From: an uncultured SAR86 cluster bacterium
GTDB taxonomy: Bacteria > Pseudomonadota > Gammaproteobacteria > Magnimaribacterales > AG-339-G14
Assembly: GCA_902525435.1 (NCBI GenBank)
Contig: CABZHD010000003.1
Coordinates: 39,827-103,826, forward strand
Direction of reading: 5' to 3'
Length of the DNA: 64,000 bases
How positions within the stretch are numbered: position 1 is the first letter of the stretch; each line of letters opens with the position of its first letter. Below, piece after piece: positions 26,713 through 29,838 of the stretch. A model generated the notes under the pieces. That model was given only the letters and a program-made list of their open reading frames with translations. It did not search any database and was not told where the DNA came from. The position numbers were made by a program, and so were the translations under genes.

Positions 26713-26758
26713 TTGGTGGGTCTGGCAGAACTCGAATCTGCGACCTCACCCTTATCAG
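26713..26758 (-). repeat. Orphan copy of the tRNA-Ile(GAU) 3' half (att-like direct repeat, distal copy)
   Basis: ttggtgggtctggcagaactcgaatctgcgacctcacccttatcag is identical at 46/46 positions to 29761-29806. No 5' half of a tRNA follows it. Confidence 0.9.
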
Positions 26759-26780
26759 TAGTGAGAACTATCTAAAAAAC

Positions 26781-26803
26781 CTTATAATATCAATACTCTC
26801 AGA
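26781..26803. repeat. Left terminal inverted repeat of the island (23 bp)
   Basis: CTTATAATATCAATACTCTCAGA matches the reverse complement of 29733-29755 (CTTATAAAATCAATACTTTCAGA) at 21/23 positions. Confidence 0.75.
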
Positions 26804-26810
26804 CTAGTAA

Positions 26811-26829
26811 TGTGCACGAGTGTGTGCAT
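26811..26829. repeat. Paired TGTGCA(C) palindromic motifs, left end of the island
   Basis: TGTGCACgagtgTGTGCAT. Both motifs are centred on the GTGCAC/TGCA palindrome. The counterpart lies at 29683-29700. Confidence 0.6.
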
Positions 26830-26865
26830 GATGTTGAAACATTATTTTTCAAAAATATAGACATT

Positions 26866-27192
26866 TCATGATAGCAATTTAAGTATTTGTTTTTTATTTT
26901 TTTCACCAAATTTTTGATATTGATTAATAATCCCTGATAGTGATTTACCAAAATCTGTTAATGAATATTCAACCCTTGGCGGAATAGTTTGAAAATCATC
27001 TCTATGAATGAGATTGTGACTTTCTAGTTCTCTTAACTGTTTAGTAAGCATTTGCTCTGTGATCGGAGACAGAGTTCTTTTTAATTCACCAAATCTTTTG
27101 GGTCCAGACTGTATGGTATACATTAATGGCATTTTCCATTTGCCACCAATAAGTTTAGTAACCTGGTGAATTGCACAATAATTGTCTTTCAT
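26866..27192 (-). CDS. HxlR-family winged-helix transcriptional regulator
   Basis: 108 aa, with CAIHQVTKLIGGKWKMPLMY...GPKRFGELKR matching the HxlR-type HTH pattern. Transcribed divergently from the doxX-gst-pirin genes. Confidence 0.85.
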   Translation of the reverse strand: MKDNYCAIHQVTKLIGGKWKMPLMYTIQSGPKRFGELKRTLSPITEQMLTKQLRELESHNLIHRDDFQTIPPRVEYSLTDFGKSLSGIINQYQKFGEKNKKQILKLLS

Positions 27193-27197
27193 AAATT

Positions 27198-27251
27198 TTG
27201 TACTATGTTATTAGTTAGTACTCAATTATTAATTAGTACTTGTTATTTTCA
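27198..27251. promoter_or_regulatory. Three tandem imperfect 18-bp units with GTAC cores in the hxlR/doxX divergent promoter region (candidate HxlR operator)
   Basis: The units are TTGTACTATGTTATTAGT / TAGTACTCAATTATTAAT / TAGTACTTGTTATTTTCA. GTAC cores lie at 27200, 27218 and 27236, an exact 18-bp phasing. AGTACT is itself palindromic. Confidence 0.5.
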
Positions 27252-27295
27252 TTGTGAAAAATATTATACACAGATTCAATTAAAGGAGAATAACT

Positions 27296-27688
27296 ATGAA
27301 TAAATTAAATGAATATATTGACCAAGTTTCTTTTGTAGGACCATGGTTGCTTAGAATTACTCTTGGTGTATCTTTTTTCTTATATGGATTCGGTAAGTTT
27401 CCTTTGCCATCAGAATTATTGCTCAGTTTTGGATTCTCTCAGTTTGTTGCTGTATTAGTTCCTCTTGTTGAGGTAATTGGTGGTATTGGAATAATTCTCA
27501 CTGGTTTTATAAGTGGATTGTGGGGTCAATTATTAACACGCGCATTGGGTTTGGTTTTATCAGTATTAATGATTTTTGCTCTTGTTCTTGCGCATTCTGA
27601 TTGGTTAATAAATGCAGAACTTTTTAAAAATATACAGGTTTACTTACTTGTCGTATCTTTACACTTTGTTTTTAAACCAAAAGGTTAA
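27296..27688 (+). CDS. DoxX family membrane protein
   Basis: 130 aa with four TM helices and the LLRITLGVSFFLYGFGKF pattern typical of DoxX. AAAGGAGA Shine-Dalgarno upstream. Confidence 0.75.
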   Translation: MNKLNEYIDQVSFVGPWLLRITLGVSFFLYGFGKFPLPSELLLSFGFSQFVAVLVPLVEVIGGIGIILTGFISGLWGQLLTRALGLVLSVLMIFALVLAHSDWLINAELFKNIQVYLLVVSLHFVFKPKG

Positions 27689-27705
27689 ATGAATAGGAGA
27701 TAACT

Positions 27706-28635
27706 ATGGGTAAACTAATTGAGGGTGAATGGATAGTAAAATCCATTATTACATCAGACGATTCAGGTGCATATGATCGCCTACCAAGAACTTTTTTAGA
27801 TACTATTGAGAAAGGCCATGAAAAATTTCAACCAGAGTTAGGTCGTTACCACTTGTACGTTAGTTACGCATGTCCATGGGCTACTAGAACTTTGATATAT
27901 AGACAACTTAAAGATCTTAACGATCACATAAGTGTCAGTGTTGTTCATCCAGATATGCTCGAAGAGGGATGGGTATTTGACACAAGCTTTCCTGGTGCTA
28001 CTGAGGATCATCTATATGGCAAGAAGTTTTTAAGAGAGATATATCAGAAAGCAGACCCAACAATTACCACCAGCGTTACTGTACCAATACTGTGGGATAA
28101 AAAAACTGAAACAATTGTTAACAATGAATCTTCCCAAATAATTAGAATTCTGAATACTGCATTCAATGATTTAACTGGCAACCATAATGATTACTACCCC
28201 GAAGATAAAAGAGAATTAATAGATGAACTGAACGATATCATCTATGACAGCGTGAACAATGGCGTCTATAAGTCAGGCTTTGCTCTTTCCCAAGAGGCTT
28301 ATGATAATGCTGTTTCAAAACTGTTTGAAACACTTGATTTTCTCGACAATAAACTAAGCAAAACCAAGTTTCTAATTGGTGATGAAGTCACAGAGGCTGA
28401 TTTAAGGCTGATTCCAACGCTATTAAGATTTGATCCTGTTTATGTCACCCATTTTAAATGCAATATTAGACGAATCATGGACTACAAAAATTTATATAGA
28501 TACATGCAAGACATGCTAAAAATACCTGCAGTAAAAGATACTTGCGATATTGATCACATTAAACGTCACTACTATTACAGTCACGATCAAATCAATCCAT
28601 ATCGTATTATTCCTCATGGACCAATTGAATTATGA
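27706..28635 (+). CDS. Xi-class glutathione transferase / glutathionyl-hydroquinone reductase (YqjG/ECM4-like)
   Basis: GRYHLYVSYACPWATRTLI contains the Cys-Pro-Trp-Ala active-site motif of GS-hydroquinone reductases. ~310 aa. AGGAGA Shine-Dalgarno upstream. Confidence 0.8.
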   Translation: MGKLIEGEWIVKSIITSDDSGAYDRLPRTFLDTIEKGHEKFQPELGRYHLYVSYACPWATRTLIYRQLKDLNDHISVSVVHPDMLEEGWVFDTSFPGATEDHLYGKKFLREIYQKADPTITTSVTVPILWDKKTETIVNNESSQIIRILNTAFNDLTGNHNDYYPEDKRELIDELNDIIYDSVNNGVYKSGFALSQEAYDNAVSKLFETLDFLDNKLSKTKFLIGDEVTEADLRLIPTLLRFDPVYVTHFKCNIRRIMDYKNLYRYMQDMLKIPAVKDTCDIDHIKRHYYYSHDQINPYRIIPHGPIEL

Positions 28636-29444
28636 GTAAAATGATAATTCCTGCATACGAAACCTCCGATGGTGCAGGAGTTAAAATTTTTCGCAGCCTT
28701 GGACAAACCCAAGATGTTCGCCTTGACCCATTTTTAATGTTAGATGAATTCTGCTCTGACAATCCAGATGACTACATTGGTGGATTTCCTTCACATCCAC
28801 ATAGAGGGTTTGAAACATTCACGTATATGATTGAAGGACATCTACAACATGAAGATAGTATGGGCAATAGTGGTGAACTAAAGTCGGGTGAAATGCAATG
28901 GATGACAGCAGGTAGAGGCATTATTCACTCAGAGATGCCATTGCAAAAAAATGGTCTAATGAAGGGTTTTCAGTTATGGGTTAATTTACCTGCAAATGAA
29001 AAAATGCAAAAACCAAAATATAGAGATATAAAAAAAAATGAATTCATTGATTTATTTGACGGTTCAACGCAAATTAAACTAATTGCAGGCGAGTACAAAG
29101 GTCATACTGGACCAATAAGCGGCCTAACTACTGAATTAGAATATTTTGACATTAATATTTCAAAAGAAAATTTTAAGTTTTACGGTAAAAAAAATAAAAA
29201 TTATTTTATATATCCATTTGAAGGAGATCTGATAGTTGATAATGAAGTGGTCCCAAAAAGGACAGGCATGAAATTTACTGAAACCGTGTCAATTTTATCT
29301 AGAGAGAATCAGGCAAGATTTCTTCTAATTGGAGGGAGGCCAATAAATGAATCAATTGCTCAATATGGACCTTTTGTAATGAATACAAAGAAAGAGATTA
29401 TTGATGCGATGAGTGATTATCAGAAGGGCTATTTTAATTATTAG
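28632..29444 (+). CDS. Pirin family protein (bicupin)
   Basis: GFPSHPHRGFETFTYMIEGHLQHEDSMGN is the pirin metal-binding His/Glu motif. The ATG overlaps the upstream stop (ATGA). Confidence 0.85.
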   Translation: MSKMIIPAYETSDGAGVKIFRSLGQTQDVRLDPFLMLDEFCSDNPDDYIGGFPSHPHRGFETFTYMIEGHLQHEDSMGNSGELKSGEMQWMTAGRGIIHSEMPLQKNGLMKGFQLWVNLPANEKMQKPKYRDIKKNEFIDLFDGSTQIKLIAGEYKGHTGPISGLTTELEYFDINISKENFKFYGKKNKNYFIYPFEGDLIVDNEVVPKRTGMKFTETVSILSRENQARFLLIGGRPINESIAQYGPFVMNTKKEIIDAMSDYQKGYFNY

Positions 29445-29480
29445 TTCTTTTATAAACTTTAAAATTAATAGGAAGTGATT

Positions 29481-29600
29481 ATGGAATGTGGTTGTGGAAG
29501 AAGTCCAACGGGCAAATGTATCGGTTGGCATAAACTGTCAGAAGAAGAGTATCAAGAAAAGTTAAAAGAATATCAAGATAAAGAAAAAGAAGAAGATTAG
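29481..29600 (+). CDS. Hypothetical 39-aa Cys-rich protein
   Basis: Hand translation gives MECGCGRSPTGKCIGWHKLSEEEYQEKLKEYQDKEKEED. An AGGAAG Shine-Dalgarno lies ~6 nt upstream. The pattern is C3, C5, C13, H17 followed by a charged helical tail. Below the ORF-track cut-off, and I cannot confidently name a family. Confidence 0.4.
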   Translation: MECGCGRSPTGKCIGWHKLSEEEYQEKLKEYQDKEKEED

Positions 29601-29682
29601 AAGTTATAGAAACTTAAAATCATTTAAAGAAGTTTATTTGAACTTCTTTTCAAAAAGTTAACTATGATTAGTAAGTTTTTAG

Positions 29683-29700
29683 TGTGCACAGGTGTGCACA
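29683..29700. repeat. Paired TGTGCACA palindromes, right end of the island
   Basis: TGTGCACAggTGTGCACA: two perfect 8-bp palindromes with a 10-bp period. The pair could instead fold as a 6-bp hairpin followed by atatcTTTTT, i.e. a possible terminator. Confidence 0.6.
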
Positions 29701-29732
29701 ATATCTTTTTAAGAAAGGAGATATACCCACAC

Positions 29733-29755
29733 TCTGAAAGTATTGATTTTATAAG
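29733..29755. repeat. Right terminal inverted repeat of the island (23 bp)
   Basis: TCTGAAAGTATTGATTTTATAAG is the reverse complement of 26781-26803 at 21/23 positions. It lies 5 nt from the att-like repeat. Confidence 0.75.
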
Positions 29756-29761
29756 ATTTAT

Positions 29762-29838
29762 TGGTGGGTCTGGCAGAACTCGAATCTGCGACCTCACCCT
29801 TATCAGGGGTGCGCTCTAACCAGCTGAGCTACAGACCC
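29762..29838 (-). tRNA. tRNA-Ile (anticodon GAU), CCA encoded, not in an rRNA operon
   Basis: The reverse complement is GGGTCTGTAGCTCAGCTGGTTAGAGCGCACCCCTGATAAGGGTGAGGTCGCAGATTCGAGTTCTGCCAGACCCACCA. Anticodon stem CACCC/GGGTG with loop CTGATAA. Near-identical in its central part to E. coli tRNA-Ile as I recall it. Confidence 0.92.

Follow-up and report, generated by a model that had tools for sequence, protein, structure and literature searches.

How does a block of genes come to sit between a tRNA gene and a detached copy of that gene's own 3' half, with no integrase among its genes? The question is raised by a 64,000-nt stretch of DNA from an uncultured SAR86 cluster bacterium (GenBank assembly GCA_902525435.1, contig CABZHD010000003.1, positions 39,827 to 103,826), which we will call the window and whose coordinates we use throughout. 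The block (the island) is the 3,002-bp interval 26759-29760, between two copies of the 3' half of tRNA-Ile(GAU). SAR86 is among the most abundant uncultured bacterial groups of the surface ocean, and to our knowledge the exchange of flexible genes in its streamlined genomes is poorly documented.

An original prediction, made from the letters of the window alone, had read the island as an integrase-less and possibly cis-mobilizable element at tRNA-Ile. Empty sites in related genomes, integrase-bearing relatives, and copies of the island in other hosts support this reading. We propose that the island is probably a discrete, horizontally acquired, and non-autonomous member of a family of small integrative elements of SAR86: it has no integrase of its own and resembles the cis-mobilizable elements (CIMEs) of other bacteria.

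A discrete insertion at tRNA-Ile

The two copies of the repeat are identical at 46 of 46 positions, as had been claimed. Beyond this core, weak similarity continues for 12 more bases (7/12 between the core-proximal bases of the fragment-side arm, TAGTTCTCACTA, and the tRNA), for a total of 58 nt at 91% identity. ARAGORN and Rfam both place the full tRNA-Ile on the minus strand where it had been predicted (Table 1), and neither calls a tRNA at the orphan copy. The tRNA gene has 77 nt, with one extra base in the D-loop, so position 33 of the gene (29806) corresponds to the canonical C32, where the anticodon loop starts. As stated originally, the repeat extends from C32 to the CCA end plus one flanking base. 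Just inside the direct repeats are 23-bp inverted repeats (motif A), which had also been noticed and which are the only two matches to this motif in the 64 kb at up to 3 mismatches (0 expected). The GC content of the island (0.32-0.36) is like that of the flanks, again as claimed.

The host belongs to SAR86: the GT2 gene that flanks the tRNA matches two SAR86 single-cell genomes at 97-98% amino acid identity, and all of its other matches are at 54% or below. One single-amplified genome (SAG), AG-905-N06 (L002 in our numbering of fetched loci), has an empty site. Positions 40847-29760 of the window correspond to 1-11082 of L002, and positions 26758-22985 correspond to 11036-14796. The two blocks overlap by exactly the 46-nt core, so in AG-905-N06 the tRNA-Ile directly abuts the sulfatase flank. 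Four Tara contigs (L102-L105) have the same empty site. An empty site of just this form, with the sulfatase gene directly after tRNA-Ile, had been suggested as something to look for. The prediction had also named a lack of empty-site alleles among relatives as evidence against it; empty sites exist, and the island is also found in other host backgrounds (see below).

The sequence to the left of the orphan fragment (26712 and below) can be aligned to what immediately follows tRNA-Ile in the empty-site genomes and hence would be the ancestral attB flank and its sulfatase gene. In L001 and L112, the sulfatase gene is missing too, and tRNA-Ala is only 1.4 kb from tRNA-Ile. Given these loci and the empty sites, the island is a discrete insertion into a hypervariable interval between tRNA-Ile and tRNA-Ala.

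Integrase-bearing elements at the same crossover

To detect orphan fragments in metagenomes, we scanned with a query that consisted of a non-C base plus the core. This found seven further orphan fragments, all of which start at C32 and which border varied cargo. In L113, the order is arm, core, arm, and a 392-amino-acid open reading frame (ORF), and in L113 and L120-L123, a gene of ~390 codons lies ~90 nt after the core. The original prediction had attributed the repeat to integration by a tyrosine recombinase at the anticodon loop of tRNA-Ile, and had suggested a search for an integrase next to another copy of the core. These relatives carry such a gene at the same core and with the same boundary.

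The protein has 377 homologues. PF00589 was matched by 5 of the 19 family members that we tested (best E = 9.9e-8), and P0254, which is a family member from tRNA-Phe (48% identical), matches a PHROG annotated as integrase (E = 1.5e-18). The family profile had no matches in the PDB by sequence, and the identification there comes from fold search only: the AlphaFold model of P0198 (predicted local distance difference test score, 82) matches full-length lambda Int, XerA, Tn1549 Int, XerH, Cre, and IntI, with a probability of 1.0. The model also has an N-terminal β-sheet domain, as in arm-binding integrases. Judging from the modelled fold, the family is a divergent group of lambda-Int-like, heterobivalent tyrosine integrases.

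The integrase-bearing elements are 6-9 kb and encode the integrase, many small ORFs, a rolling-circle Rep of the REP_ORF2-G2P type, and a serine resolvase. No conjugation genes are on record in these relatives, so the partners are unlike integrative and conjugative elements (ICEs), which would have them. In L123 (31-7526), two elements that both encode integrases stand in tandem: tRNA-Ile is followed by element A, then by a fragment, and then by element B. The P0254 clade uses tRNA-Phe(GAA) and duplicates positions 31-76 of that tRNA, which is also 46 nt. L131 (1-8332) is an 8.3-kb unit with a fragment of tRNA-Phe at either end, so it is either a circle or part of a tandem array. The P0204 clade has defence cargo and is found at tRNA-Ile in another lineage. 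Finally, in L118, elements that end in a resolvase lie at an orphan fragment.

L124 (9810-18218) is an autonomous relative that is integrated in a SAG. Like L123 and L131, it carries a tyrosine integrase, a rolling-circle Rep, and a serine resolvase, and all three resemble marine satellites of the type called VEIMEs (for virion-encapsidated integrative mobile elements). In L114 (1-8939) and L116 (1-3760), an island of at least 8.9 kb beside an orphan fragment encodes type I restriction-modification (HsdR, HsdS, and HsdM) along with a Schlafen/AlbA_2 protein; its fragment-side arm has ATACACAGT-type sites, which match the P0199 clade of integrases. L117 (709-4043) contains a second island in which we see no integrase (3.2 kb), at the identical crossover in tRNA-Ile. 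Its arms are unrelated to those of the window and have no TGCAC pairs. We considered whether its 420-amino-acid ORF beside the tRNA might be a novel recombinase. However, this protein has a DGQHR domain (DndB-like; a sub-threshold match in NCBIfam) and no matches in Pfam, PHROGs, or the PDB, and it is more likely to be defence cargo. The other four ORFs in L117 have no family match.

The att arms of the island

The sequences between the core and the cargo resemble the attachment (att) arms of the integrase-bearing elements in their layout. (We count positions in the orientation of the tRNA.) Every family member has two arm-type sites that are 12 nt apart, ~56-70 nt before the core, and two more that are 10 nt apart, ~61-75 nt after the CCA end. 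In the window the pairs are at -70/-58 and +64/+74; in the integrase-bearing relatives they are at -68..69/-56..57 and +61..65/+71..75. The window's sites are of the type GTGCACAC, and pairs of the form TGCAC-N5-7-TGCAC occur in the 64 kb only in the two arms of the island (0.12 expected). The sequence of the arm sites co-varies with the clade of the integrase (ATGCACGA, ATACACAGT, or TTGAACAGT).

Other features of the arms are conserved as well. A hairpin with the loop ATCAAT adjoins the tRNA end of the arms across the family. The tRNA-side copy of motif A is nearly identical to the sequence at the same position in L134 and matches a feature that is conserved in the arms of the family. In the relatives, the integrase gene starts ~15-25 nt past the tRNA-side pair, and at this place the window has the end of the cargo operon. 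Based on these features, we believe that the island has kept both att arms with their paired sites.

The fragment-side arm is 94-98% identical in L137-L139 and in L093 and is not present in copies of the cargo in other contexts. Among the fetched loci, the exact tRNA-side arm is found only in L093/L136, which are from one sister genome. Scans for window-type paired arm sites gave 26 and 44 matches. None of these 70 loci (0/70) had an integrase of the family or a tRNA-Ile sequence, so we consider these matches to be due to chance.

No integrase in the island or the window

Pfam and NCBIfam searches of the window's ORFs of plausible integrase size found no integrase, only housekeeping families. 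Comparing 29 members of the integrase family to the window with tblastn gave a best E value of 0.16, and a hidden Markov model of the family had no match among all six-frame pieces of the 64 kb. The claim that the island contains neither an integrase nor a remnant of one holds up. An integrase gene next to the att site, as expected of an autonomous element, was found in the relatives and not in the island. We also considered a 306-amino-acid ORF (53668-54588) as a possible Xer-like gene, but it had no Pfam match and is holA. No transposase was found among the window ORFs that we examined. Scans of IMG/VR with the 43-nt core, motif A, and the integrase protein found nothing.

The island in hosts with another tRNA-Ile allele

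Loci from three different samples (L137, from JGI 3300066019; L138, from SRR8557218; and L139, from ERZ23499375) contain ~2.7 kb of the island, fragment-side arm included, with 99.4-99.5% identity. Their host flank has a Zn-peptidase gene. Their orphan fragment is the 3' half of another allele of tRNA-Ile (allele B), with six compensatory differences in the T-arm: GGGTGGACTCGAACCACC, which is equal to the tRNA of L134, instead of GCAGATTCGAGTTCTGC (allele A). (The D-loop of the allele-B tRNA-Ile is GCTTGG.) A fragment purely of the host's allele is what site-specific integration predicts, since the orphan would be the host's own displaced 3' half. The crossover must therefore lie within C32-G49, which is an 18-nt stretch that the alleles share and which is too short for efficient homologous recombination. 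No chimeric tRNA, with the 5' half of allele B and the T-arm of allele A, was seen among the fetched loci. The tail of L137 is of the window type up to 29506.

We also compared the window to the sister genome (L136). The island has 6 differences in 3,002 positions, versus 400 in 17,181 for the flanks (Fisher p = 6e-21). Divergence is thus about 10-fold lower in the island than in the flanks.

Proposed origin of the island and alternative explanations

We propose that a tyrosine recombinase inserted the island by site-specific recombination in the part of tRNA-Ile(GAU) that holds the anticodon loop. The incoming attP would have brought a copy of the tRNA's 3' half, so the tRNA gene stayed intact, and the host's own 3' half would have been displaced by 3 kb to become the 46-nt orphan. 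In other words, the 3' half of the intact tRNA (29762-29806) would be derived from the element. Of the family's sequence, the island would have retained just the att arms (~107 and ~160 bp), with the genes of the element replaced by cargo. Excision and integration, at present or recently, would be carried out by a related integrase in trans, or in cis within a tandem array with an integrase-bearing element. Transfer from cell to cell would use whatever vehicle the integrase-bearing elements use. We infer that the island may be mobile at present and that it may have a cognate integrase among its relatives.

The most serious alternative is a dead remnant. In this case, the cargo would have come in with an integrase-bearing element that integrated on one or a few occasions and that became immobile after internal deletions removed its integrase and other genes. 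It would then have spread vertically, or by homologous recombination among relatives only, and the copies in L137-L139 could be a still-autonomous version with an integrase. The window's lack of an integrase is as this alternative expects. A study of the tycheposons of Prochlorococcus described degenerated elements and scattered partial tRNAs in genomic islands (10.1101/2020.12.28.424599), which also fits.

Several other observations weigh against our proposal. Across the whole arms, identity to the integrase-bearing elements is 41-55%, versus 42% for an unrelated AT-rich control, so the homology of the arms rests on motifs in register and not on overall similarity. We did not observe a circle junction, an excision scar within a population, or a tandem array that includes the island. 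Four further points would be explained by a dead remnant. First, a third, distal site (at +89..92 and -112..113 in the integrase-bearing elements) is missing from the window's arms, which may therefore be incomplete. Second, we found no integrase whose own arms carry GTGCACAC-type sites; the relatives use the other three types. Third, the window and L136 become gradually less alike on the GT2 side of the island (99.2-99.3% identity in the next 2.6 kb and 98.7% in the following 1.5 kb), as in a recombination tract, so spread within the species by homologous recombination is also plausible. Fourth, the allele-B contigs end near 29471-29506, so that only the fragment-side junction is visible in these hosts, and an integrase might lie beside the tRNA there.

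Yet in a dead remnant, we would not expect both arms to survive, with their paired sites in register and with the cargo precisely filling the space between them. Also, the 46-nt fragment has not decayed, even though it is free of selection for tRNA function. The nearly identical copies in hosts whose allele and flank are not those of the window would require homologous recombination with a crossover inside the 18 shared nucleotides, and the tail of L137 runs into the window-type small ORF. Overall, a dead remnant seems rather unlikely to us.

Alternatively, the island might be a transposon-like element, in which the 23-bp inverted repeats are the sites of a transposase and the 46-bp repeat is a target-site duplication. 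Inverted repeats just inside direct repeats are what one would look for in such an element. But the boundaries of the repeat coincide with the anticodon loop and the 3' end of the tRNA, as they do in unrelated elements with tyrosine integrases at tRNA-Ile and at tRNA-Phe, and the inverted repeat next to the tRNA has its counterpart in the arms of the integrase family. The apparent inverted symmetry of the arms arises from their near-palindromic TGCAC sites. The target duplications of DDE transposons are typically far shorter than 46 bp, and this duplication is always of the same segment of tRNA, instead of the short duplications at varied sites that would indicate a DDE transposon or a miniature inverted-repeat transposable element. 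Given also the lack of a transposase among the ORFs, we consider a transposon to be very improbable.

An assembly artefact, in which a collapsed or duplicated contig end gives a false 46-bp repeat, is barely conceivable: several short metagenome contigs do break ~21 nt into the repeat, where assemblers struggle, but an independent assembly (GCA_902570595.1, the source of L093/L136) has the same arrangement with flanks that are 2% diverged, which disposes of the original caveat on this point, and the fragment junction is present in three further samples, and both junctions run into continuous and syntenic host sequence.

The cargo

The features of the island and its boundaries are listed in Table 1. 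The description of the 3,002 bp as filled by a regulator, three genes for enzymes or membrane proteins, and a 39-amino-acid ORF agrees with the Pfam matches and the translation.

Table 1. Coordinates of the island, its putative att arms, and the tRNA-Ile sequences that bound it.
Feature	Coordinates	Strand	Evidence and remarks
Orphan tRNA-Ile 3' half (C32 to CCA + 1 nt)	26713..26758	-	46/46 identity to 29761-29806
Putative fragment-side att arm (P arm)	26759..26865	-	Motif A 26781-26803; TGCAC-N7-TGCAC 26812-26828
HxlR-family (DUF24) transcription regulator	26866..27192	-	Pfam PF01638, E 6.5e-30; divergent from operon
DoxX-family small membrane protein, first gene of operon	27296..27688	+	Pfam PF07681, 27 bits (cut-off 23.6)
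Xi-class, YqjG-like glutathione transferase (GST)	27706..28635	+	Pfam GST_N_2, GST_C_2
Pirin (bicupin, YhaK/YhhW-like)	28632..29444	+	Pirin E 7.9e-35; Pirin_C E 2.4e-23
39-amino-acid Cys-rich ORF (MECGCGRSPTGKC...)	29481..29600	+	Translation; no family match (Pfam)
Putative tRNA-side att arm (P' arm)	29601..29760	-	Hairpin 29626-29650; TGCAC-N5-TGCAC 29684-29699; motif A 29733-29755
Intact tRNA-Ile(GAU)	29762..29838	-	ARAGORN; Rfam 72 bits; 77/77 identity to tRNA of empty-site genomes

The regulator has sub-threshold resemblance (in NCBIfam) to the redox regulators RrpA and RrpB, and it is probably a sensor of redox state or of electrophiles. Homologues of the GST are named "glutathionyl-hydroquinone reductase" or "glutathione-dependent reductase" in their source records, and we predict that the GST is of the glutathionyl-hydroquinone reductase type. 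The start of the pirin gene overlaps the stop of the GST gene, and the AT-rich hairpin in the tRNA-side arm probably terminates the operon. Taken together, the cargo appears to be an operon for redox or quinone stress, with the HxlR regulator followed by DoxX, the Xi-like GST, the pirin, and the small Cys-rich protein. We propose this because of the family assignments, the resemblance to RrpA/RrpB, and what is established about HxlR/DUF24 regulators, YqjG-type GSTs, DoxX proteins, and pirins.

The cargo genes are also found apart from tRNA-Ile. A DoxX protein identical to the island's is on record in several genomic contexts and in 185 index blocks of the collection. The 39-amino-acid ORF has 87% DNA identity in L092-L101, where it is annotated as a gene, and it is kept with the module elsewhere. 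An HxlR-DoxX-small-ORF module with ~95% identity is found downstream of glmS and in further non-tRNA contexts, and all four genes of the module are present, at 96.6% identity, in a different context again in L099. In all of the non-tRNA copies, homology ends at the ends of the genes (26866 and ~29596), so the terminal 107 bp and 160 bp are specific to the element at tRNA-Ile. It appears from these comparisons that the cargo was captured by the element.

GST-pirin pairs with 75-78% DNA identity adjoin recG in other SAR86 contigs, and in L081 and L082 (10001-11739), the pair is in a conserved core context between recG and a gene for an H+-pyrophosphatase. This context suggests that the island's GST-pirin pair derives from a chromosomal SAR86-like locus.

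The non-tRNA copies of the HxlR-DoxX-small-ORF module (L092, L094, L096-L101, and L140) invariably lead into a conserved tail of ~150 nt that contains two palindromes (...TATAACCCCCGCAGAATGTGGGGTTAAAACCTAAAGTAGTTTGAAACTACTCCACTGT), for instance at 10533-10690 of L092. In L092 and L094, the module is directly downstream of glmS, within runs of small ORFs on the same strand. In L099, it is flanked by a 13-bp direct repeat, ACTGTAACGGAGT (2138-2150 and 5166-5178). The tail and the 13-bp repeats may mark a second mechanism for shuffling cassettes. We considered that the module might be an integron cassette. However, each locus has the palindromic tail only once, and the tail departs from the R''/R' consensus of attC sites. 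The boundaries of the island itself are tRNA halves and arms, unlike the boundary of an integron cassette. IntI was absent from the window ORFs that we examined by family scans (we made no dedicated search for attC).

Neighbouring regions

Among close SAR86 relatives, the interval from tRNA-Ile to tRNA-Ala varies from 1.4 kb (with only AhpC and ECH) to 11.9 kb. The genes for the sulfatase, a DUF3604 protein, a fatty-acid hydroxylase, and a desaturase vary in presence, with no visible att scars. The fatty-acid hydroxylase gene (21751-22980) is absent from L002. The DUF3604 gene (in the region 22985-24998) differs by 5.7% between the window and L136, compared to 1-2% for its neighbours. There are no other fragments of tRNA-Ile or tRNA-Ala elsewhere in the window, so the variability of the sulfatase, DUF3604, and fatty-acid hydroxylase genes is not explained by visible att scars.

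Both tRNA-Ile(GAU) and tRNA-Ala(UGC) (17832-17907) stand alone, and the 64 kb contain no rRNA. These two tRNAs are usually found in the spacer between the 16S and 23S rRNAs.

Upstream of tRNA-Ile (29891-34022), a cluster with GT2, PAP2/LPG-synthase, and PMT_2 genes resembles the Arn-type cluster for modifying lipid A. Since homologues of GT2 outside of this SAR86 group are only distant (54% identity or less), this cluster may itself have been acquired. Exact-match look-ups of the GT2 and sulfatase proteins had nothing on record.

Five metagenome contigs (L106, L107, and L109-L111) end at position 52-53 of tRNA-Ile, which is ~21 nt into the 46-nt repeat. Such breaks are typical of a branch in the assembly graph and suggest that genotypes with and without the island co-occur in those samples.

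Gene exchange in SAR86

The locus is a sequence-level example of exchange in SAR86, with a defined attB, a crossover within C32-G49, conserved arms, a divergent family of lambda-Int-like proteins, and an integrase-less cassette in hosts with different alleles. Synthetic attP and attB sites and the candidate integrases are reagents with which our proposal could be tested. Judging from the cargo, the ability to tolerate quinones or electrophiles seems to be a niche-specific trait that is traded.

More speculatively, SAR86 might exchange genes in two tiers. Minimal integrase-less cassettes, with arms of ~100-160 bp around an adaptive or defence operon, would be routinely mobilized, in trans or by accretion, by integrases from small elements that resemble satellites and have a rolling-circle Rep. 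In this scenario, tRNA-Ile and tRNA-Phe would be integron-like platforms and a main route by which flexible genes move between SAR86 lineages that have no plasmids or prophages. There are hints that such an arrangement is general: L117 (DGQHR) and L114/L116 (type I restriction-modification) have no integrase in the part that is seen, and the island itself is in hosts with different alleles. We offer this idea tentatively.

Comparison with known systems

CIMEs are defined by having kept attL and attR, by having no genes for integration or transfer, and by accretion with ICEs (PMC6323972). Like the streptococcal CIMEs (of the ICESt1/ICESt3 type), the island keeps both predicted att arms and has no recombination genes; autonomous relatives share its site; and the family forms tandem arrays (L123). 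Specifically, it has direct repeats and both arms, its five genes are all cargo, and none of them is for integration, excision, or transfer. On the other hand, its partners, at 6-9 kb, encode a rolling-circle Rep and a resolvase and are not conjugative ICEs, and its host is a streamlined Gram-negative planktonic bacterium. Also, accretion was seen only between integrase-bearing elements, and mobilization of the island itself, in cis or in trans, is proposed.

The tycheposons of Prochlorococcus integrate at tRNAs, leave partial tRNAs (repeats of ~40 nt), stack in tandem, and leave degenerated remnants (10.1101/2020.12.28.424599). As in tycheposons, we find tyrosine recombinases at the 3' part of a tRNA, tandem elements that are split by a partial tRNA, integrase clades that follow the targeted tRNA, cargo of ecological relevance, and, at the window's locus, a tRNA associated with an island and flanked by a partial copy. 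However, the host is SAR86, the replication module of the relatives is a rolling-circle Rep instead of a primase/helicase, and the island has none of the hallmark genes, which are a tyrosine or large serine recombinase of the tycheposon clade and a replication module, yet it seems to keep both arms.

About 20% of marine VEIMEs, which are phage satellites, have no integrase, and some subgroups have both a tyrosine and a serine recombinase; the main text of that study does not mention SAR86 (PMC9618062). VEIMEs are also small marine integrative elements, and their replication is inferred to resemble the rolling-circle type. For the island and its family, we found no relative in IMG/VR.

Island fGI-2 (a flexible genomic island) of "Ca. 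Methylopumilus" (Methylophilaceae) is an additive island at tRNA-Lys, with cassettes that are delimited by 20-bp repeats of the tRNA's 3' end (PMC10872708). This is also a hotspot next to a tRNA, with repeats of the tRNA's 3' end, in a streamlined planktonic bacterium. Our search of the literature found no paper that links SAR86 with such elements. The original prediction had described the island as unusual for streamlined, AT-rich marine gammaproteobacteria. Because of the tycheposon remnants, the islands of Methylophilaceae, and the integrase-less VEIMEs, the island is unusual only for SAR86. Compared to fGI-2, whose 20-bp repeats were described with neither arms nor a partner integrase, the island has a 46-nt repeat, defined arms, and an identified integrase family. 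It thereby extends the picture from tycheposons, CIMEs, and VEIMEs to SAR86.

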